Source: an uncultured Gammaproteobacteria bacterium
GTDB taxonomy: Bacteria; Patescibacteriota; Microgenomatia; JALYQM01
Assembly (NCBI GenBank): GCA_964403585.1
Contig: CAYOFQ010000001.1
Coordinates: forward strand, 648,630 to 712,629
Direction: 5' to 3'
Length of the DNA: 64,000 nt
Part shown: positions 1 through 38,789 of the stretch, in pieces
Numbering within the stretch: position 1 is the stretch's first letter
How the letters are laid out: each line of letters starts with the position of its first letter
Position numbers and translations under genes: made by a program
Notes under the pieces: generated by a model
What the model was told of the DNA's origin: nothing
Seen by the model: only the letters and a program-made list of their open reading frames with translations
Databases searched by the model: none

Positions 1-23
1 CAATTCACCAGTATAGTACAGAC

Positions 24-929
24 TTAGGAACACGTAAAGGTAAAGGTATTGCCGGCGTGAATTACCCCCGGCTTAATGAGCTTGTTTTGAGTTGCAATTG
101 AATTCCAGGCGTAGCCGTTATTGCATTTATCCCGGGCAATGCTCCACAAGGAGTCTCCATGGACGACGGTGTACGTGATACTTCCTGCAGGTGTTTGAGG
201 AGCAGGAGTTGTTACCGATGCACCACCGACTGCCGGAGATACGGATGTCTGCGGTTTCGCAGTGGAGGCAGGTGTCGCTTGAGCAATTTGACTCTTATCG
301 GTTGATGTTGCTGAAATAAGTTCGACCTTTGGCACAGTTAAGACCTGACCTTTCTCAAGGGTGTAGACGCCGGCTAATTTATTGGCAGTAGCAATTTGCT
401 TCCACTCATAACCGGTGCCATAAAAGCGCTCTGCTAGCTTCCAGAGCGAGTCACCATTCTGCACGGTATAGGTAGCCGGAAGTGTTTTTGAATCAGCTCC
501 GCCGACTGCCGGTGCAGGAGAAGTTGTTGCTTGAGCTACCTGAGTAGGCTTTGGCGATTCGCTTGGTTTTGCAGTTGCGGTTGCTTTAGCAATTTCGGTC
601 GGTTTCGCTGTAGCAGTTGCCTTAGGTGTGGCTGTTGGTTTCGGTGTTTCGGTTGGTTTGACTGTCGTTGTAGCTTTGGGGGTGGAAGTAGGCACTTTTG
701 TAGCTTGGGCAATCGATTTGGGTGAACCGCTTACCGATGCAATCTTAGCTGTGTCGCTCGGCATTGATGATGAGACTGCTACTGACTTTTGAGTTTGTTC
801 TTTCAATAAATTCGGGGTTTGGTTGTTGAAATAATTAAACAGTAAGATACCCGAAACTACGACGACCAAAGCACCCAATCCCATACTGATCAGGGAATCA
901 TCCCATTTTTTACCGGTATCTTCTGACAT
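24..929 (-). CDS. LysM-domain secreted/membrane-anchored protein (two LysM repeats, Thr/Pro-rich linker)
   Basis: N-terminal TM helix, long T/P/A-rich low-complexity linker, and two LysM motifs (YTVQNGDSLWKLAERFYG..., YTVVHGDSLWSIARDKCNNG...). The track ORF begins at 941, but the in-frame ATG at 929 has a GGAGG SD 6 nt upstream, so 929 is the preferred start. Confidence 0.8.
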   Translation of the reverse strand: MSEDTGKKWDDSLISMGLGALVVVVSGILLFNYFNNQTPNLLKEQTQKSVAVSSSMPSDTAKIASVSGSPKSIAQATKVPTSTPKATTTVKPTETPKPTATPKATATAKPTEIAKATATAKPSESPKPTQVAQATTSPAPAVGGADSKTLPATYTVQNGDSLWKLAERFYGTGYEWKQIATANKLAGVYTLEKGQVLTVPKVELISATSTDKSQIAQATPASTAKPQTSVSPAVGGASVTTPAPQTPAGSITYTVVHGDSLWSIARDKCNNGYAWNSIATQNKLIKPGVIHAGNTFTFTCS

Positions 930-20284: not shown

Positions 20285-22798
20285 TCACTCATTGCTACCT
20301 ATTAACTGGAGTTCTTTCCACACCAGCTGGTGAGATTCTTTACCTGCCGGATTAATTGAAATTTGCTGCGTTAATTCTCTCCAGCGGGAGTGCATCTCCA
20401 GTGGATGCGCGTACTGTTCGGCATTGGCATCAGTCATCTCTTCCGTGTAATGTATAGTTCTGCGACCCGTCGATTCAATGAGAATATTTTGCTTCTCAAA
20501 CATGCGATATGTGTTTTGAAAATTAATTACCGGCTCAGTCAGATACGCATACTCTTTAATCAAATCCCACAACACATCATTCACCGCTTCGGAAGTTTCC
20601 ACTACCGGCAGTCCTAAATTTTTTGCTTCAAAGTATACAATCGGATAATCGCTCGAAGGATAACTTTGAGTCAGTGTTTGAACAATCTGTGCTATTTGAG
20701 CATCGGTTCCAGGTGTTTTTCTCAGCTTTAAAAGATTGGTACAAATCCGTTGAACTAATGACAACTGTCGGTTTGCAGCTGCAGTAACTAACGGATGGAA
20801 TGTTTCAGGATCCTGGTTTACCACAGCAGTTGAGGCTTCTTTTTGTCTTGCCGTTGATTTAGACGGCAGCGGGTTTGATGCCTGGAAAATTTCGTTGAGC
20901 GGCACCGCTACTGATTCCTGGTCAAACGATTTGCTGAGCAATTTATGCGAGAACCAGGTGTCAACAGGTGAAAGAAATCCGAACGGATTCATAAGTATCG
21001 AATCACCCGATAACGCCATCATTGTTGTCGCAACCGAAGATTCTTCAGGTAAAATTACCGTCAACTCGTCACAAAACTCGCGAACCAATGTCGCCATTCT
21101 CCAGATAACAGTGCTGTCCGCATCCTGAATAATTGGCAACAAGTAGAGCGATTTCTTTTTTCCTAACTTTCGCAAGTGGCTATAGAGATAGCGCATATCC
21201 TCCATGGATACATAGGTATTGGCCGCATAATACACGAGAACTTTTCCGTGCAGAGATTCTTCCAGGCGTTCAATCGATTCCTGTGTTCGCTCCCAGGCAA
21301 CCGGAGGTTTGCGCGGCGGAAGTGACCCGCTTTGATTTTGAGTCTTTGCTTGTGGACGTTCGGCACGTTGTTCAGGGGCTGGGAGGCGCTGCTCGCGTTC
21401 TTGCTGACGTTGGTCCCGGTCCGGCTGGCGTTGCTCCCGTTCAGGTCGTTGTTCACGCTCCGGCGGACGCTGTTCGCGGTCTGCTCGTTGTTCACGATCT
21501 GCCTGCCGAGGCGGACGTTCTGATTGAGGCATCTCTTTTGGTGCTTCCGGTGTCGTAATATCATTCTCAAAGCGGGGCTCTTCCTGCCGTGCTCGTGGCG
21601 GTTCAGTCTGTATTTTTGGCGCGGGGGGTGCCACCGTTTTTTGTTCAGCACGAGGCATCTGTTCACGCTGTTTAGGCTGCTCAGGTTGCCGTGCAGGTTG
21701 TTGTTGCGACTGCTGCTTTGGTGCTGGCTGTTCCGCCAGCTGGGGAGCTGCTTGAGCCTTCGACTCTTTTTTGGGAGCTGCTGCTACCGGCGGTGCTGGT
21801 GGTTTCGACTGCTGCTGTTGTTGTTTTGGTTGTTGAGGTACCTGCTCAGGCGGCCGCTGCTGCTGTTGCTGAGGGGCTTTTGGCTGTTGCGTCTGCTGCT
21901 TCGGCTGCGGGGGTTGCTGGGGCTGTCGTGCCGGTGCGGGTTGGGGAACCGGTGGCATTTGCTGTGCAGGTTGATTTTGATTAAACGCAGCTTGAAGCGG
22001 CGGAATTGCCGGAGGGCGGCCCGGTGCCTGACCAGGCTGCATCTGTGCATTAAGTGGCGGCAATGACGGTACGCGCTGCGGTTCAGTAGCCTGCGGCATG
22101 GATGGCATCGTTAATGGCGGTAGTACGGGTGATTTATCGGCGACAGTACCGGAAGGGTCATCAAACTGTAAACCGCTGCTCTTCAGCAGATCGTCCAGAC
22201 TCGGTAACTCAAAGGGCACATTTTGCGGATTGGCCTGCTGTCCCTGGTTACTGAAAGGAAGCGGCGGAATCTGACTCTGCTGCGGTACCGGGTTTTCAAC
22301 AGGGGGACGTCCAGGTGGTTGGTTAGGCATAGGCGCTTGACGCTGCGGAGCTGCAGGCTGAGGTGCCGGCATTGGGGCCGGTGCCTCCGGAGCCGGTGCA
22401 GTTCCGTTTGTATAACTTTCCCAGGCTAAATCAGTGATTCTTTTGTAAATCAGGTCAAAGGGCGCTTTTCGCATCTCTCCTTTAAGCCGCTGATAGCTGG
22501 TCATCGTTACCGTATTGTTGCCCATCGCGTCAACGATACTCAAGGTAACATCGGGCACATTGGGAGACGATCCTGAATCATGAACAATATTCGGCAGCTG
22601 AAAAAAACCGACTTCCCTGGCATATTGCAGGACTTCGATAACTTTCTGTCGCTCAATCTGCCGTTCGACGATATCTGTATCAGACTCAAAAATGAGCATT
22701 CGCCCATTGTCGTAAATTTCAACATCCCCGGCACGGGAGTTTGGCGGCAACATACCACCACTCATTTTTACTAGAATAGCTAGATTTGAAACAGGCAT
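20285..22798 (-). CDS. Large (837 aa) protein: N-terminal globular region, very long P/Q/A-rich disordered segment with REQR/DREQR repeats, and a C-terminal ClpP/SDH-like (serine peptidase fold) domain
   Basis: Long, clean ORF. Low-complexity PQ-rich core (…PQPAPARQPQQPPQPKQQTQQPKAPQQQQQRPP…) and tandem DREQRADREQRPPEREQRPEREQRQPDRDQRQQEREQR. C-terminal region KVLVYYAANTYV…LPEESSVATTMMALSGDSILMNPFGFLSPVD resembles the SDH/ClpP-class serine peptidase fold. Confidence 0.7.
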   Translation of the reverse strand: MPVSNLAILVKMSGGMLPPNSRAGDVEIYDNGRMLIFESDTDIVERQIERQKVIEVLQYAREVGFFQLPNIVHDSGSSPNVPDVTLSIVDAMGNNTVTMTSYQRLKGEMRKAPFDLIYKRITDLAWESYTNGTAPAPEAPAPMPAPQPAAPQRQAPMPNQPPGRPPVENPVPQQSQIPPLPFSNQGQQANPQNVPFELPSLDDLLKSSGLQFDDPSGTVADKSPVLPPLTMPSMPQATEPQRVPSLPPLNAQMQPGQAPGRPPAIPPLQAAFNQNQPAQQMPPVPQPAPARQPQQPPQPKQQTQQPKAPQQQQQRPPEQVPQQPKQQQQQSKPPAPPVAAAPKKESKAQAAPQLAEQPAPKQQSQQQPARQPEQPKQREQMPRAEQKTVAPPAPKIQTEPPRARQEEPRFENDITTPEAPKEMPQSERPPRQADREQRADREQRPPEREQRPEREQRQPDRDQRQQEREQRLPAPEQRAERPQAKTQNQSGSLPPRKPPVAWERTQESIERLEESLHGKVLVYYAANTYVSMEDMRYLYSHLRKLGKKKSLYLLPIIQDADSTVIWRMATLVREFCDELTVILPEESSVATTMMALSGDSILMNPFGFLSPVDTWFSHKLLSKSFDQESVAVPLNEIFQASNPLPSKSTARQKEASTAVVNQDPETFHPLVTAAANRQLSLVQRICTNLLKLRKTPGTDAQIAQIVQTLTQSYPSSDYPIVYFEAKNLGLPVVETSEAVNDVLWDLIKEYAYLTEPVINFQNTYRMFEKQNILIESTGRRTIHYTEEMTDANAEQYAHPLEMHSRWRELTQQISINPAGKESHQLVWKELQLIGSNE

Positions 22799-24906: not shown

Positions 24907-25044
24907 ATGGCACATCTATTTACTACATTAGAAAACTCTCCGGCAATTCTTGTTTCGATTGTTTTCTTTATTGGGTGGACTGCCTCTTTGTGGGGTTTAC
25001 CGGCTCTGAGAGAATTACTCAAGGGAACCGCAGATTCCGAATAA
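24907..25044 (+). CDS. Possible small membrane peptide (45 aa), unannotated in the ORF track
   Basis: ATG at 24907 preceded by a canonical AGGAGG at a good distance (taggaggcctcATG). Encodes MAHLFTTLENSPAILVSIVFFIGWTASLWGLPALRELLKGTADSE, with one hydrophobic helix. Confidence 0.4.
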   Translation: MAHLFTTLENSPAILVSIVFFIGWTASLWGLPALRELLKGTADSE

Positions 25045-25100
25045 CCATTTACAGTCAATGGCATGTGCTCCTATAATAACTATACTTGGAGAGAGTAATC

Positions 25101-26762
25101 ATGTCTGAACTGCCCACAATCAAAGTAACGTATATCGTTGATACGCTTTTACCTGAAAAATGTCACGATCTCATTGCCATCCATGCTCTTTATGGCGAAG
25201 TTGATGATCAGGATGTCGGTTCATTTGCCGAAAGTCTGATCCTGAACCGCTGGACAAAAGAAGTTGTATCACGCGAAAAATATTCTCAATCCTCCCAGGT
25301 CATTACGCTTAATGAGCATAAGTATTCGGTACCTGTGTCACGATTTAGCCAGAGCCAAACCTTATTTCCTGAAAAAATACTTTCGGAAATACTTTCCGAG
25401 ACGGAAAAGATTCGTATGCATGACCCGCTCACTAAACAGGTGCTACTTATCGTTACGGGAGATAATGTCTTGCATAATGTTTCTATCCGGAAACAGAGCC
25501 ATCTGCCGATTATTCATTTTACTCGCAATACTAACCAGCCACAAAAAATTATCACCGTTCACCCCAACCATTCCGGGATAGCACACGGATTTTTCCATAA
25601 GATTTCGACAAAATCAGAACTTTCCCGGGTAAAGAGGGATACAATCATCGCAGCACCATATCGGATTCTCAAAGAGTACCGGGGCAAATGCAACGGGATA
25701 CTCATTCTAAAAGATCAAACACATTCGGGACCTTATACGATGCACTTCTCGGGCCCGCATCTGGTCGTGGAATCCGCAGATCTTAAAGACATTCCCGAAC
25801 GTACCTATATTTCGCTCAACTCATCCCGGGGTGAGATAGCCATTATTGGCAAAAACGCCCAACTGCGTTCGACTCAGCTGACAGTAACGCAGAAACGCTT
25901 AATCAGAAAAGTTGAAACGGAACAGGTAAAATTCTTCCGGGATCTTTCCGCCGGATCAAAAGGCGAGACACCTACCGTGTACGGGTATAGTTTACTTAAT
26001 CCCACCGAATTGGTCAGATCCGTGCTTGAGCGTCATCGGTCCGGAAGTTTTACGCAAGCACTGATCGATTATATAATGGGGGATTTAAGGCTAACCCCTC
26101 GTAAGCCGTTAGTATACCAGTCACTTTGTGTCAGTTTGGGAACCAAAAATGTATTTGGCAAACACGGTGGGCAGTATTTGCGGGAAAGTCCGGACTTCTT
26201 CCTTGAAGAGTTGGAAGCCCTGCACCAATTATTGTATGTCTATAATTTCTCCGATATAACCCTTACTATTCCGTTTGTAAGAACGGTAAAGGAGCTCGAA
26301 GATATTAAGAAAATAATTGCCAGGCATAAGCTGACGCGTTCGCATAAATTCAAGTTGTTTATTACTGTGCAGGTACCCGCGAACATTCTGCAGTTGAACG
26401 AATATCTCGATGCCGGTTTGGATGGCGTTATTATTGATCTGCAGTGTCTTACCGATCTTACCCTGGGAATTGATTCACATCTATTCAGGAAAGAGTACCG
26501 ACAGGCGGCCCACACATACGAGTTTATGGATGAGACATTTCGCGCTATGCGCAGTGGAGGTGTCTGGGAGATCGATGCGGAGCTGTTTAGACAAGTAAAA
26601 CTCGATGCTGCCATCAATCGAATTTTGGAACATACACGGGAAATCTGCCGCCGTCGTAAGACACCTGTTTATTTATATTTACCGGATACCTATGAAGAAG
26701 AAGTGGAGCAGGAGCTCCGTAAGCAAACTTTGCCTCATTCAGTAATTCCCGCTTATGCCTAA
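25101..26762 (+). CDS. PEP-utilizing enzyme family protein (Enzyme I / PEP synthase-like phosphohistidine + TIM-barrel domains), highly divergent
   Basis: The C-terminal roughly 300 aa align to the PEP-utilizing TIM-barrel (ITLTIPFVRTVKELEDIKKII...LFITVQVPANILQLNEYLDAGLDGVIIDLQCLTDLTLGIDSH; compare MIEVP...FFSIGTNDLTQ). The central segment DQTHSGPYTMHFSGPHLVVES...GEIAI resembles the mobile phosphohistidine domain (GGRTSHAAI...P.VVG...G.V). Several canonical catalytic positions appear substituted. ATG at 25101 has a GGAGAG SD; the track start at 25086 is TTG. Confidence 0.65.
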   Translation: MSELPTIKVTYIVDTLLPEKCHDLIAIHALYGEVDDQDVGSFAESLILNRWTKEVVSREKYSQSSQVITLNEHKYSVPVSRFSQSQTLFPEKILSEILSETEKIRMHDPLTKQVLLIVTGDNVLHNVSIRKQSHLPIIHFTRNTNQPQKIITVHPNHSGIAHGFFHKISTKSELSRVKRDTIIAAPYRILKEYRGKCNGILILKDQTHSGPYTMHFSGPHLVVESADLKDIPERTYISLNSSRGEIAIIGKNAQLRSTQLTVTQKRLIRKVETEQVKFFRDLSAGSKGETPTVYGYSLLNPTELVRSVLERHRSGSFTQALIDYIMGDLRLTPRKPLVYQSLCVSLGTKNVFGKHGGQYLRESPDFFLEELEALHQLLYVYNFSDITLTIPFVRTVKELEDIKKIIARHKLTRSHKFKLFITVQVPANILQLNEYLDAGLDGVIIDLQCLTDLTLGIDSHLFRKEYRQAAHTYEFMDETFRAMRSGGVWEIDAELFRQVKLDAAINRILEHTREICRRRKTPVYLYLPDTYEEEVEQELRKQTLPHSVIPAYA

Positions 26763-27894
26763 AATCGAAAAACTTACTGCTATAAAGATTTCGCACGACA
26801 ATACGTCTCTCCTTGGGATTCAGCTGAAGCTGGATAATGGTTTGGTAGTCCAGTCAAATTTTCCGGTGCAGGGTAATGACCCTACACATGATGTTACTAA
26901 GGCTATGACGGTTATCAATGACATAGTCGCGCAAATCGTCGAAGGACTTAATCCGCTGCGCCAAAAAGAACTTGATAAAATGATCACCGAATTAAGTGCA
27001 ATTCACGAACAGTCGGCACTACGGGCAAATATATCACTTGCTCTCTCTCTCACTATATTAAAAGCCGCCGCCGCACTTAATAATCTTGATCCGGTTACCT
27101 ATATACGTACAATATATGGTTTCGATCAAGGTAGAGAGCATCGGCCGATCCTGGTTTTTACGTGTATCAAAAATGAAGGAGGCACGGGAGCTTTTAAAGA
27201 GTTTTTCGTGATCCCTGCACGCAGTAAATCAACTTCGGAGTCATTGCTGATGTTCCGGGGTGTTGCTGCTGCATTAAAATCCGATACTCCGCTGATCACC
27301 ACTCACCATGAAATCATGAATACGGTGCAAATCGAATTATTGGAAAAACAGATACTCTGTCTGGGATTTTCATTGCACCATGATGTGTATCTCGGATTCA
27401 AGCCGGATCTCATCTATGACGAACAAAGAGGGTACCGTTGTACTGATATGCTGCAGGATGTCAGTGCCAACCAGATGGTTGAATATTACAAGGAACTCCA
27501 GACGTTATATTCACCATTAATTCAAGAAAATCTGTTTGCCTCTCATGACCTTATTTCGCTCGTAACACTCCATAAAGAGATTGGTGATCAAACAATACTC
27601 ACCGTGAGTTCCGAACGTGTCACCACGCCGGTTGAGTGCCGCAGGTATGCTGCTGCGCTGCCCACAGCGATGCTGAATTTAACGCATCAATCAGTTCCTT
27701 CGGTAACACAGTATATCGAGCTAATCGATGCCGCTAAAAAAGCTGATTGGAAGGTAATGATCGATACGAATGGCTGCAGTGATTATGGATTGTTATTCGC
27801 CCTCTCAGCTGCCGCTCAGGTGGACTTTATAAAAATGGATAGGTGTGACTTAGAAATAGAAAAGGAACTCTCATATGTTGGACAAAGCGATTAA
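26755..27894 (+). CDS. Enolase-family protein, divergent (probable pseudo-enolase lacking most catalytic residues)
   Basis: Clear enolase-specific similarity in the N-terminal and central regions (VTKAMTVINDIVAQIVEG...ANISLALSLTILKAAAALNNLDPVTYIRTIYG vs enolase VTKAVAAVNGPIAQALIG...GANAILAVSLANAKAAAA...PLYEHIAELNG, and ILVFTCIKNEGGTGAFKEFFVIPARSKSTSESLLMFRGVAAALK vs [30 protein letters not shown]...EVFHHLAKVLK). It is only 379 aa, the SGASTG loop is deleted, and the catalytic Glu/Lys/Asp positions appear replaced when compared by eye. Confidence 0.7.
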   Translation: MPKIEKLTAIKISHDNTSLLGIQLKLDNGLVVQSNFPVQGNDPTHDVTKAMTVINDIVAQIVEGLNPLRQKELDKMITELSAIHEQSALRANISLALSLTILKAAAALNNLDPVTYIRTIYGFDQGREHRPILVFTCIKNEGGTGAFKEFFVIPARSKSTSESLLMFRGVAAALKSDTPLITTHHEIMNTVQIELLEKQILCLGFSLHHDVYLGFKPDLIYDEQRGYRCTDMLQDVSANQMVEYYKELQTLYSPLIQENLFASHDLISLVTLHKEIGDQTILTVSSERVTTPVECRRYAAALPTAMLNLTHQSVPSVTQYIELIDAAKKADWKVMIDTNGCSDYGLLFALSAAAQVDFIKMDRCDLEIEKELSYVGQSD

Positions 27895-29452
27895 GCCGGT
27901 GGTACTGCTCATCTTTGATGGATTTGGTATCGCTCCGGCCAGCAACGGCAATGCGGTAACTCAGGCCAATATGCCTAACTTCCATAATTTTTCAGCACGG
28001 TTCCCGCACGGTCGGCTACAGTCAAGCGGAACCGCAGTTGGACTTACTCCCGGTGAAGTCGGTTCAACCGAGGTCGGTCACCTCAATATGGGCGCCGGGC
28101 GGGTTGTGTATCAGGATTTACCGCGGATCAATATGTCTATTTCCGAAGGAACATTTCTGACCATCCCGGCACTGGTATCTGCCGCAAATCACGCCCGCGA
28201 AAATAATTCTAATCTCCATTTAATGGGGCTGGTCAGTAACGGCAATGTGCATGCCTCTATTGAGCATCTCTATGCATTATTATGGTTTGCCCGGGCGCAG
28301 GGACTATCTCAAAATCAGGTAAAAATCCATGCTTTTTTGGATGGTCGGGATACTCCGCCAACATCGGGGAAAATGTTCCTGGCTCAAGTTGAAGAGAAGG
28401 CCAGTGCCCTACAAATTGGACAGATCGCCAGCATCGCCGGAAGATATTATGCCATGGATCGCGACAACCGATGGGAGCGTATCGAAAAAGCATACCGTGC
28501 ACTGGTTTTTGGTCAGGGTGACACAGCACATTCGGCTCAGGAGGCTATCCAAAACAGTTACAGTAAGAACGTCACTGATGAATTTGTCGTGCCAACCGTA
28601 ATCCTTGATGATCAGAACCAGCCTGTAGGCCAAATAAAAGATAACGATGCGGCGATTTTCTTCAACTTTCGTACCGACCGCCCGCGTGAGTTAACCAAGG
28701 CCATTGTTCTGGATAATTTTAATACTACCGATCGGCCCGCCTTTGACCGCGGAACTAAAGTAAGCAATCTGTTTTTCGTCACCATGACTGAATATGACCG
28801 GGAACTTACGGTGAATGGAATTGCCTTCCCACAGGAAAAAATTAACATGCCGTTGTGCCGTGTCCTTTCTAACCACGATTTACGGCATCTTCATATCGCC
28901 GAAACTGAAAAGGAACGATTTACGACATTCTTTTTCAATGGCATGCGCGAGGACCCGTTCCCGGGAGAGGAACGTATTTTTATTCCGTCACCCAAGATTC
29001 CGACATATGATTTAAAACCTGAAATGTCGAGTTTTGAAATTACCGACGCCTTTCTGAAAAAACTCGATCAGCAGTCTTTCGATTTTTGTGTTATCAACTT
29101 CGCTGCTTCCGACATGGTTGCCCATACCGGAAAGCTTGATGCCGCTATTAAAGCCTGCGAAGCCCTAGATATTTGCCTTGGAAAAATCGTCAATGCCGTT
29201 TTAAATGTTGGCGGAGCAGTGTTGCTGACAGCCGATCACGGCAACGTCGAAAAAATGATCGATGAAAACAATGTTCCGGATCCCGAACATACCAACAATC
29301 CTGTTCCGTTTTTAATTATGGCTAAAGAATTAAACTCACTCCAGCTCCCGTATGGAATTCTCGCCGATGTTGCTCCAACGATTTTGGCTTTAATGGGAGT
29401 TCCAAAGCCATCTGAAATGACCGGACGGAACTTGTTACCGAGCTCACATTAA
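27875..29452 (+). CDS. gpmI: 2,3-bisphosphoglycerate-independent phosphoglycerate mutase (iPGM)
   Basis: Near-canonical iPGM: PVVLLIFDGFG, GRYYAMDRDNRWERIEKAY, NFRTDRPRE, FAASDMVAHTG, LLTADHGN. The nucleophile context reads GSTEVGH rather than GNSEVGH, placing Thr at the Ser position. Confidence 0.88.
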   Translation: MLDKAIKPVVLLIFDGFGIAPASNGNAVTQANMPNFHNFSARFPHGRLQSSGTAVGLTPGEVGSTEVGHLNMGAGRVVYQDLPRINMSISEGTFLTIPALVSAANHARENNSNLHLMGLVSNGNVHASIEHLYALLWFARAQGLSQNQVKIHAFLDGRDTPPTSGKMFLAQVEEKASALQIGQIASIAGRYYAMDRDNRWERIEKAYRALVFGQGDTAHSAQEAIQNSYSKNVTDEFVVPTVILDDQNQPVGQIKDNDAAIFFNFRTDRPRELTKAIVLDNFNTTDRPAFDRGTKVSNLFFVTMTEYDRELTVNGIAFPQEKINMPLCRVLSNHDLRHLHIAETEKERFTTFFFNGMREDPFPGEERIFIPSPKIPTYDLKPEMSSFEITDAFLKKLDQQSFDFCVINFAASDMVAHTGKLDAAIKACEALDICLGKIVNAVLNVGGAVLLTADHGNVEKMIDENNVPDPEHTNNPVPFLIMAKELNSLQLPYGILADVAPTILALMGVPKPSEMTGRNLLPSSH

Positions 29453-29806: not shown

Positions 29807-30424
29807 CTATTGATACTTACGGATCACACCAACAACTTTACCTTGAATTTGAACATCGGTTGCATAGATAGGTTGCATGGTACTGTTGGCCGGTTCAAGA
29901 CGAATACGGTTTGGCTCTTTGTAAAATCGTTTTAATGTAGCTAATCCGTTTTCAAGCAAAGCTACAACTATTTCACCGTTGCGGGCTGTCTCCTGACGCT
30001 CAATAATAACGAAATCGCCATCTAAAATCCCGTCTTCAATCATCGACTCGCCTTTAACTTGCAGTACATAAGTCGGCTTTTTACCTGAAATCATTCCTGA
30101 ACTGACTGTCATTGCTGCGTTCGGGTCGGTAAATGTAGCAATCGGCTGACCAGCGGCAATGTACCCGAGAATCGGTAACTCTACGCCTTCCAGCATATTG
30201 CCCATCTTTTTTTCCAGAACCTCAATCCCGCGCACCATACCTTCGTATTTCCTGATTAATTTTTTCTTCGTCAATGCCTGTAAATGTTCGTGAACAGTGG
30301 CCAACGACTTTACATTGATCGCATCGGCAATTTCCTGCAAGGTAGGAGAGTAGCCATTCTTCTGAATATATTGTGAAATAAAATCTAATATCTGACGCTG
30401 CTTTCGGTATACTATAACGGGCAT
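29807..30424 (-). CDS. lexA: LexA repressor (S24 peptidase)
   Basis: N-terminal winged HTH (ILDFISQYIQKNGYSPTLQEIADAINVKSLATVHEHLQALTKKKLI) and C-terminal S24 autoprotease domain with GESM Ser and KR Lys. Confidence 0.9.
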   Translation of the reverse strand: MPVIVYRKQRQILDFISQYIQKNGYSPTLQEIADAINVKSLATVHEHLQALTKKKLIRKYEGMVRGIEVLEKKMGNMLEGVELPILGYIAAGQPIATFTDPNAAMTVSSGMISGKKPTYVLQVKGESMIEDGILDGDFVIIERQETARNGEIVVALLENGLATLKRFYKEPNRIRLEPANSTMQPIYATDVQIQGKVVGVIRKYQ

Positions 30425-37820: not shown

Positions 37821-38789
37821 CTACTGCACCATAAATATTCTCAAAATATCGTTTGACGCATTTGTATGCTTATGCGGAGCGCCGCCTGAAGCTTCCGGAA
37901 AGGCGGCATCACCAGTATCATACTGTGCAGTCATATCGGTTCCACATCCTGAAACAATCGAGGGCTTCCCTCCGGAATGAAACTTAATATAGTCGGTAAT
38001 GTTATAGAGGTGTCGTCCGTCGGTTTTATCGGTATAGACGACGTAGCAATCAGTTTCCCTATTGTGAAGCTTCGCAATCTCAAGCAGTGGGTCAGGTGTC
38101 GGCGTTGGTACCGGCGTAGGGCTTGGGGTGCGAGTCGGAGTAGGGGAGGGAGTTGGTGATACTTCCGGGCCGGGTACAATCGCAACAATATACATTGAGT
38201 AGGCCGCAGCCTGAGCATCGGAAGCTGCTCCAAAAGTAATAGTCCCTGCAGGTGCTGTCCTGGAATAAAAATCGTAAATACCAATCAATCCGAGCTCATT
38301 TTTCCGTTTTGCGTACTGATTAATATGTGAAAGATCATCGTTGGTCGAGCGCGAATAGCCGTTTTTTATCCAATTGGGTACCTGATTAATACTCGGGATG
38401 TGCCGGGTAAGAATATAGACTGTCGATTGGACTGCTGTCGTTACCGACCAACTCAACGTGGTCGAATCTTTTATTTCGGAATTGGGTGTCAATACAAAGG
38501 CAGCGTTATTAATTGACTGGTCAGGCAGGAAGAAAAGAAAGCGGCTATCCGTAGAATACATTTGAACATTATTCTCAATACAGCCTTTGTTGAATGTGTA
38601 CCCGGCAGGACTGTTTATTGAAAAAAATGAGGTTGAACATCCAATCTGAGCATCGGTGTCGTCGGTATGGTTAAGTTCAGATTTGGTTATCCTTGTTGAG
38701 GCGTAGACTCCAAAAGTCAGGATACTCCCAACCAGCACTACCACGAGTAACTCGTTCATATAAGCATTTTTCATTTTCATCGGTTGCAT
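37821..38789 (-). CDS. Secreted/TM-anchored hypothetical protein; paralog of 18226-19809, with a C-terminal cytochrome-b5-like segment
   Basis: The N-terminal 200 aa align with ORF 18226-19809 (WSVTTAVQSTVYILTRHI...NWIKNGYSRSTNDDLSHINQYAKRKNELGLIGIYDFYSR...YSMYIVAIVPGPE), followed by a TPSPTPTRTPSPTPVPTPTPDP linker. The C-terminus LEIAKLHNRETDCYVVYTDKTDGRHLYNITDYIKFHSGG resembles the cytochrome b5 heme-binding motif (...HPGG). Confidence 0.7.
   Translation of the reverse strand: MQPMKMKNAYMNELLVVVLVGSILTFGVYASTRITKSELNHTDDTDAQIGCSTSFFSINSPAGYTFNKGCIENNVQMYSTDSRFLFFLPDQSINNAAFVLTPNSEIKDSTTLSWSVTTAVQSTVYILTRHIPSINQVPNWIKNGYSRSTNDDLSHINQYAKRKNELGLIGIYDFYSRTAPAGTITFGAASDAQAAAYSMYIVAIVPGPEVSPTPSPTPTRTPSPTPVPTPTPDPLLEIAKLHNRETDCYVVYTDKTDGRHLYNITDYIKFHSGGKPSIVSGCGTDMTAQYDTGDAAFPEASGGAPHKHTNASNDILRIFMVQ

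Follow-up and report, generated by a model that had tools for sequence, protein, structure and literature searches.

The stretch of DNA analysed here, 64 kb of contig CAYOFQ010000001.1 (hereafter the window), carries at positions 25101 to 26762 a gene whose product, termed PpsL, is a degenerate homologue of phosphoenolpyruvate (PEP) synthase (PpsA). Judging from sequence comparison, PpsL is probably a PpsA-derived pseudoenzyme that has been retained for a non-catalytic role. The residues needed for catalysis in PpsA were replaced in PpsL, and its reading frame appears to be maintained by selection on the protein. In a preliminary description of the window, the same gene had been regarded as encoding a protein that resembled Enzyme I of the PEP-dependent phosphotransferase system (PTS) rather than pyruvate phosphate dikinase (PPDK) or PEP synthase. 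The gene is as follows.

25101..26762, + strand: PpsL, truncated and degenerate PEP synthase homologue; open frame of 553 amino acids (aa).

The best NCBIfam match of PpsL was PEP synthase, over its C-terminal part (E 8e-15). The bit scores were 53.9 for NF005057 (cut-off 598) and 51 for TIGR01418 (cut-off 739.75), below both family cut-offs. In Pfam, the only match was a marginal one to PEP-utilizers_C (PF02896) over residues 358-459, its 22.6 bits falling just short of the gathering score (22.8). A phmmer search of the PDB with PpsL returned PEP synthases only (2OLS, 9DAE and 8A8E), with E values of about 3e-05 for 2OLS and 9DAE. Four orthologues (P0002-P0005; 536-548 aa, 47-52 % identity) form with PpsL a family of five sequences, here called class A. 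The hhalign comparison of this family with the canonical PpsA profile gave a probability of 99.8 % (E 1.6e-28), and residues 23-459 of PpsL were collinear with residues 206-674 of PpsA. The AlphaFold2 model of PpsL, built on a nine-sequence alignment, had a predicted local distance difference test score (pLDDT) of 73 and a predicted template modelling score (pTM) of 0.50. Foldseek with this model placed the PEP synthase 2OLS at the top (E 6e-15), followed by PPDKs, with Enzyme I structures lower. PpsL belongs to the PEP-utilising enzyme superfamily, with homology well beyond chance, and the profile match to PEP-utilising families on which the preliminary description depended was found both by hhalign (99.8 %) and in NCBIfam (E 8e-15). 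The next-best search matches, class B (P0016-P0024), were proteins of 378-464 aa whose start and end points match those of PpsL.

The domains of PpsL were assigned as follows.

25167..25550, + strand: residues 23 to about 150, a C-terminal-lobe remnant of the ATP-grasp domain of PpsA; collinear with PpsA 206-340 in hhalign, in agreement with MAFFT alignments A1 and A4.
25551..25850, + strand: degenerate swivel (phospho-histidine) domain, residues about 151-250; pLDDT 73-90 in the model.
25923..26693, + strand: triosephosphate isomerase (TIM) barrel of the PEP-utilizers_C type, residues about 275-531; assigned from Pfam, phmmer, the alignments and hhalign.
26106..26477, + strand: conserved barrel core, residues 336-459; 73 of 124 columns invariant, mean pairwise identity 75 %.
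26478..26600, + strand: family-specific insertion of about 40 aa, residues 460-500, after strand 6 and GIDSH; pattern LFxKxYxxxxHxYxFM.

The start of PpsL corresponds to about residues 185-205 of PpsA in the MAFFT and hhalign alignments, and nothing in PpsL corresponds to the first ~205 PpsA residues, within which the nucleotide-binding part lies. PPDK_N (PF01326) gave no match to PpsL in Pfam. The ATP-grasp domain, described earlier as lacking, is thus not fully absent; its C-terminal lobe remains at residues 23 to about 150, and the loss holds for the nucleotide-binding part. Mean pairwise identity among orthologues was 36 % in the swivel domain. The barrel, for which the hhalign, Foldseek and NCBIfam results all support the earlier assignment of a PEP-utilising TIM barrel to the C-terminal part, ends without the last strand and the C-terminal helix of PpsA in the alignments. 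The insertion at residues 460-500 is conserved in class A and is found neither in PpsA nor in the class B orthologues.

An identity as Enzyme I was rejected. No PF05524 match was found in PpsL at E <= 1, and PF00391 gave no match in Pfam either, which was the outcome for two of the three profiles that the preliminary description had proposed for comparison. The N-terminal region of about 210 aa, taken there as Enzyme-I-like, is homologous to the PpsA ATP-grasp domain, with residues 23 to about 150 of PpsL aligning with residues 206-340 of PpsA. Sequence and profile searches matched PpsA and returned no Enzyme I, and Foldseek ranks PEP synthase and PPDK higher than Enzyme I, against the proposed Enzyme I layout. 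The profile alignments and the model indicate that PpsL is a truncated PpsA derivative and not an Enzyme-I-like protein.

Catalytic residues were mapped with MAFFT alignments A1 and A4 and with hhalign against the canonical PpsA proteins P0006, P0007 and P0009-P0011. The following replacements were found.

Catalytic His of PpsA (GGRTSH): G210 in PpsL.
Arg of PpsA (LLRAEF): N300 in PpsL.
Glu of PpsA (LLRAEF): T302 in PpsL.
Arg of PpsA (YRTTD): Q340 in PpsL.
Asp of PpsA (YRTTD): C343 in PpsL.
Arg of PpsA (GYRG): H355 in PpsL; His, Gln or Ser across the class A family.
Mg-binding Glu of PpsA (VEVP): Q424 in PpsL (TVQVP).
Asn-Asp of PpsA (GSNDLT): Q448-C449 in PpsL (IIDLQCLTD).
Arg of PpsA (DRD): S459 in PpsL.
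Proton-donor Cys of PpsA (ICG): no conserved counterpart in PpsL.

In the alignment to the canonical PpsA profile, 0 of 11 PpsA catalytic columns were kept in PpsL, and careful alignment therefore recovered none of the conserved residues that would have spoken for an active enzyme. The replaced positions are the equivalents of R296, R332, R358, E431, N454, D455, R465 and C502 of Enzyme I. The substitutions in TVQVP and IIDLQCLTD, previously suggested for the E431, N454 and D455 equivalents, were confirmed as Q424 and Q448/C449 by alignment and hhalign. The extent of degeneration had been understated; five more PEP-site residues, the phospho-histidine and the ATP site were also replaced, and the ATP- and Mg-binding motifs DIEW and VQTRP of the retained ATP-grasp lobe were among the losses. 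The THSG segment, formerly read as part of a phosphohistidine-like segment, does not hold the catalytic His. Its own His, H208, lies two residues before G210, with which the PpsA His aligns, and is not conserved; in orthologue P0004, the segment contains no His at all. Because the ATP-binding part, the His and the Mg-PEP/pyruvate residues are lost, PpsL is predicted to be unable to transfer phosphate from ATP to His, to swing the His domain or to pass phosphate from His to pyruvate/PEP. On these residues, PpsL should be read as a catalytically dead derivative and not as a variant phosphotransferase. Nine residues in the former pocket region (Q340, S341, C343, Q424, D446, Q448, C449, S459 and H460) were invariant in the five class A orthologues.

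The conservation of PpsL was compared with that of the neighbouring genes. The protein identity between the window and the related loci L001 and L003 was 99 % for LexA, 90-92 % for UvrA and UvrB, 82-83 % for the phosphoglycerate mutase iPGM, 47 % for PpsL and 46-47 % for EnoL, the product of the next gene. The proportion of synonymous differences (pS) was 0.72-0.88 for every gene compared, so that synonymous sites were saturated. As the synonymous rate (dS) was saturated in every pair, the proportion of nonsynonymous differences (pN) was set against pS, and relative nonsynonymous rates (dN) were used in place of dN/dS. The dN values were 0.45-0.53 for PpsL, 0.43-0.51 for EnoL, 0.11-0.16 for iPGM, 0.05-0.08 for UvrB and 0.02 for LexA, which puts the rate of PpsL at about 4-7 times that of iPGM or UvrB. 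The pN of PpsL was 0.34-0.38 overall. In the barrel core (residues 336-459), pN was 0.18 against a pS of 0.86; outside the core, identity was 27-55 % and pN about 0.4. The PpsL frame was intact in ten loci, namely those of the five class A genomes and L011, L012, L013/L014, L015 and L016. Two other causes of the conserved core were considered and rejected: an antisense gene, as the antisense open reading frames (ORFs) were not conserved, and constraint at the nucleotide level, as the core pS was 0.86. These comparisons indicate that PpsL is under purifying selection at the protein level, relaxed outside the barrel core, and is not a decaying pseudogene. Lost catalytic residues and purifying selection, the operational marks of a pseudoenzyme, are both found in PpsL.

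PpsL occupies a conserved slot. The gene order in the five class A genomes is an SDH-type protease (- strand), a protein of about 220 aa, DUF192, PpsL, EnoL, iPGM and LexA (- strand), with UvrB and UvrA further on. The class B proteins share the Arg-to-Gln change in YQS and the Glu-to-Gln change in Q-x-P, their swivel domain is wholly deleted, and they occupy the same slot where contigs are long enough; the contigs of P0016 and P0019 are too short to show the context. The related loci outside class A have the following content.

L011: PpsL of 464 aa; EnoL of at least 253 aa (31 % identity); the contig ends before iPGM.
L012: PpsL of 423 aa; EnoL of 355 aa (20 % identity); iPGM present.
L013/L014: PpsL of 394 aa; EnoL a fragment of 233 aa; iPGM absent.
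L016: PpsL of 399 aa; EnoL a fragment of 239 aa; iPGM absent.
L015: PpsL of 483 aa, very divergent; EnoL absent; iPGM present.

PpsL is the one component found in all related loci examined, and the same orthologous locus is caught here at successive stages of erosion. As PpsL persists where iPGM is gone, it does not appear to be held open merely to avoid polarity on iPGM. Among 1.84 billion representative proteins, an exhaustive profile search recovered only two from the PpsL family itself. A profile search of a set of 5.8 billion proteins with the class A and B alignment found nothing new and did not recover class B. A scan of GTDB genomes, a collection that does not hold the host genome, gave two PpsL loci only, both already known.

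In L013, the region 1..317 (+ strand), about 8 kb 5' of the class B PpsL, encodes a 782-aa protein that combines PPDK_N, Rph_4th and PEP-utilizers domains but has no PEP barrel. Its architecture is like that of rifampin phosphotransferase, and no counterpart was seen in the window.

The two genes downstream overlap with PpsL and with each other.

26755..27894, + strand: EnoL, degenerate enolase homologue of 379 aa; its first 8 nucleotides (nt) lie within the end of PpsL.
27875..29452, + strand: iPGM, 2,3-bisphosphoglycerate-independent phosphoglycerate mutase of 525 aa; scores 614 bits with the family model (cut-off 331), well above what is required; its first 20 nt lie within the end of EnoL.

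EnoL reached 68 bits with the enolase family model TIGR01060, for which the cut-off is 300. Its residues were mapped, in yeast numbering, by profile alignments to solved enolases; this mapping is based on hidden Markov models (HMMs) only, as the single-sequence model had a pLDDT of 43 and was unusable. The following changes were found.

Ser39 loop: shortened by about 15 residues.
H159: missing.
E211: deleted or not conserved.
D246: Gly or Lys.
D320: Ser or Thr.
K345: Thr, Tyr, Thr and Gln in four orthologues.
H373: Asp or a gap; R374: Thr.

Only the equivalents of E168, E295 and K396 are kept; the catalytic base and acid of enolase and two or three metal ligands are lost. Judging from these profile alignments, EnoL cannot be a conventional enolase.

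Codon 65 of iPGM (about 28067..28069) encodes Thr at the position aligned with Ser62, the catalytic nucleophile in the enzyme from Bacillus stearothermophilus. In place of GNSEVGH, iPGM has GSTEVGH, a motif that it shares with L012 and L015. PDB entry 1O99 is an S62A mutant at the position that matches Thr65.

The region 5' of PpsL was consistent with a gene that has its own expression signals. The following features were located.

25048..25077, + strand: sigma-70-type promoter-like site, TTTACA-18 nt-TATAAT; 11 of 12 consensus matches, a consensus match only.
25088..25093, + strand: Shine-Dalgarno-like GGAGAG, 7 nt 5' of the ATG at 25101; read from the sequence.
24907..25044, + strand: apparently unannotated ORF of 45 aa with a strong AGGAGG Shine-Dalgarno; hydrophobic single-helix peptide with the core FFIGWTxxLWGLPAL.

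The small ORF ends directly ahead of the promoter-like site, which lies 24 nt before the PpsL ATG and may serve a PpsL-EnoL-iPGM unit. An alternative start, TTG at 25086, would lengthen PpsL by five codons; the ATG at 25101 was preferred because of the placement of the promoter-like site and of the GGAGAG Shine-Dalgarno. The earlier designation of 25101-26762 as a coding frame was accordingly upheld, with an open frame of 553 aa, its own promoter-like site and a Shine-Dalgarno sequence. The product of the 45-aa ORF is also encoded just 5' of PpsL in L001, L003 and L005 (63-69 % identity) and at the same position in L011, L013 and L016 (37-48 % identity), and is more conserved than PpsL.

A plausible history of PpsL begins with a lower-glycolysis cluster, pps-eno-gpmI, which would have been ancestral in a Microgenomates-related lineage of the candidate phyla radiation (CPR)/Patescibacteria, bacteria of very small size, and would be eroding there. 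In published CPR surveys, enolase and pyruvate kinase are patchy, and PEP synthase is proposed as the link between PEP and pyruvate (PMC7304191), which makes such a cluster plausible. The PpsA gene would then have shed its first ~205 codons, the catalytic His, the Arg, Glu, Asn, Asp and Cys that bind Mg-PEP/pyruvate, and the last barrel strand. What remains, a barrel core that most likely still folds, would act as a regulatory or scaffold subunit, by self-association or by binding either a partner or an uncharged small ligand. The function of PpsL would be independent of EnoL and of iPGM, since each of the two has been lost in relatives that retain PpsL. Several points weigh against PpsL being a pseudoenzyme with a non-catalytic role. 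The non-catalytic function is one that we infer; the family is tiny, and 'invariant' refers to five related sequences; the AlphaFold2 model is only moderate, with the pLDDT and pTM given above; and the replaced pocket residues are invariant and lie in the best-conserved region, which could point to a re-tooled active site.

This last point leads to the possible, if unlikely, alternative that PpsL is a neofunctionalised enzyme, in which a pocket re-tooled with Gln, Ser, Cys, His and Asp would act on a different, less anionic substrate and would use neither a phospho-histidine relay nor ATP. The former active-site region is the best-conserved part of PpsL (75 % identity, pN 0.18), class A shows no variation at the replacement residues, and strand 6 is followed by an insertion that is specific to the family and conserved in it. 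In alignment A5, Q340, S341, Q424 and D446 were invariant across class A and eight class B proteins; however, the Cys and His residues were not conserved in class B, and the L015 orthologue changes YQS, QxP and D446 to FNS, LDT and N. The barrel also lacks its last strand, PpsL evolves 4-7 times faster than bona fide enzymes of the same genomes, and no Pfam, NCBIfam or PADLOC family was matched besides PpsA. That PpsL is instead a functionless relic, with a frame open by chance or because stops would be polar on the coupled iPGM, is very improbable. A relic could explain the very high rate relative to the neighbouring genes, the progressive loss of domains across the lineage and the overlapping stop and start codons of PpsL, EnoL and iPGM. 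It does not explain why pN (0.18-0.42) stays so much lower than pS (0.75-0.86), which is saturated, with a constraint that is uneven, unlike pure open-frame constraint, nor why PpsL is kept as an ORF of 394-399 aa in L013 and L016, which have no iPGM, nor why frames are intact across genomes whose synonymous sites are saturated.

It is scarcely credible that PpsL is still a PEP-utilising phosphotransferase, either as an Enzyme-I-like PTS protein or as a split PEP synthase with a separate ATP-grasp protein. The order of an N-terminal part, a His-like segment and a barrel is superficially that of Enzyme I, H208 lies near the swivel loop in the PpsL of the window, and Foldseek recovered Enzyme I structures at lower rank. 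However, PpsL has no PF05524 or PF00391 match and its N-terminus aligns with the PpsA ATP-grasp remnant. H208 is absent from P0004, the whole domain is missing in class B, and all Mg-PEP ligands are replaced. No HPr or PTS signature was found in the 64 kb, either. The latter result came from Pfam searches of ORFs of at least 150 aa and from six-frame motif scans of the window, which revealed no HPr, EIIA or other PTS signature; within the window, the earlier statement that no HPr or PTS component is nearby therefore stands. No canonical enolase signature and no PEP-utiliser His or ND motif was present in any frame of the 64 kb.

The remaining window ORFs were ordinary housekeeping genes in the Pfam scans, such as GatA/B, DnaE, BipA, UvrABC, LexA and ClpP. 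A reading of the locus as a defence system was rejected, as PADLOC gave no match for PpsL, EnoL, the 219-aa protein, DUF192 or the SDH-type protease. The UvrB of the window falls in a tight clade at 76-92 % identity, after which identity drops to 65 %; the named matches at 65 % were from Candidatus Daviesbacteria, Candidatus Curtissbacteria and 'Patescibacteria group'. On these UvrB relatives, the host was assigned to a Microgenomates-related CPR/Patescibacteria lineage.

Other features of the window and of the related loci were as follows.

20285..22798, - strand: 837-aa protein in which a very long low-complexity stretch, rich in Pro and Gln, spans several hundred residues and the C-terminus carries an SDH-type ClpP-like protease region; conservation with relatives (65-68 %) is confined to the last ~345 residues, and the gene keeps its synteny with the PpsL slot in every related locus.
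29807..30424, - strand: LexA, with 94-99.5 % protein identity among the window, L001, L003 and L013 and with saturated synonymous sites; far more strongly conserved than UvrA, UvrB or iPGM there.
37821..38789, - strand: 322-aa protein that ends in a haem/steroid-binding domain of the cytochrome b5-like type, also in L001; unexpected for a CPR-type genome.
GCA_964535655.1 (L001/L008, CAZHTP010000002.1): labelled uncultured Gammaproteobacteria bacterium; its UvrB is 92 % identical to that of the window, the named organisms closest to this UvrB clade are Microgenomates (Daviesbacteria, Curtissbacteria), and the label is probably wrong.

Among known proteins, PpsA (TIGR01418, NF005057; 2OLS, 9DAE and 8A8E) is the clear evolutionary parent of PpsL, as seen from the collinearity over PpsA 206-674 and from the motifs IPFVRTVKELE, LxRSxxFKL and DG that the two barrel cores have in common. 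The nearest intact relatives are the canonical CPR PpsA proteins P0006 and P0007. Compared with PpsA, PpsL lacks the first ~205 residues, the GGRTSH phospho-histidine, the PEP/pyruvate/Mg ligands, the proton-donor Cys and the last strand and helix, and has gained the ~40-residue insertion after strand 6. Enzyme I (PtsI; TIGR01417; PF05524, PF00391 and PF02896) shares with PpsL the PEP-utilizers_C barrel fold, a three-part layout and a similar total length, but PpsL has neither the HPr-binding N-terminal domain nor an equivalent of His189, and its PEP-site residues are replaced.

PpsL is also similar to degenerate full-length PpsA-like proteins from metagenomes (P0025, P0029, P0030 and P0008), in which catalytic residues have likewise been lost (E to A/S/N, ND to QM/SD/YD, His lost) and some of which carry, as PpsL does, an xIDxxxL version of SIGSNDL. 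Unlike PpsL, these proteins have 700-775 aa, a recognisable ATP-grasp domain, a complete barrel and other genomic contexts (L006). P0025, P0029 and P0030 matched the PpsA models over the full length at 384-484 bits, under the 598-bit cut-off. When the nearest 158 PpsA-like representatives (P0025-P0162 among them) were compared with the canonical PpsA profile, 15 kept all 11 catalytic residues and 16 kept none, proportions that are not population estimates as the query profile favours degenerate sequences. Most of the 158 were full length (700-775 aa). This survey hints that PpsA-like proteins with lost catalytic residues form a large radiation, so far undescribed, at whose extreme PpsL may stand.

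As in metabolic-enzyme pseudoenzymes in general, homology to an enzyme, loss of catalytic residues and purifying selection occur together in PpsL. In the literature searched on CPR enolase, PEP synthase and glycolysis and on pseudoenzymes, no description of a bacterial PpsA pseudoenzyme, or of a PpsA-plus-enolase pseudoenzyme, was found. A broader proposal, which we consider rather doubtful, is that PpsL, mostly together with EnoL, is an exapted module and the extreme of the degenerate PpsA-like radiation. Two consecutive glycolytic enzymes would have become non-catalytic or re-tooled for a new lineage-specific role, either in a metabolite-sensing or scaffold complex or in new Gln/Cys/His chemistry.

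Metabolic reconstructions of CPR/Patescibacteria lean on HMM matches at relaxed thresholds, and the patchy occurrence of enolase, pyruvate kinase and PEP synthase in the CPR has been read as absence or as sequences 'too divergent to detect' (Jaffe et al. 2020, PMC7304191). The PpsL/EnoL locus represents a third state, in which recognisable homologues are retained that are predicted to be unable to catalyse. If PpsL and EnoL were counted as PEP synthase and enolase, lower glycolysis would wrongly appear to be complete in these genomes. The series seen in this slot, from full-length PpsA to a truncated form and to a form without the swivel domain, and from a short form of enolase to a fragment and to nothing, could show how enzymes of central metabolism are dismantled or exapted in genome reduction.

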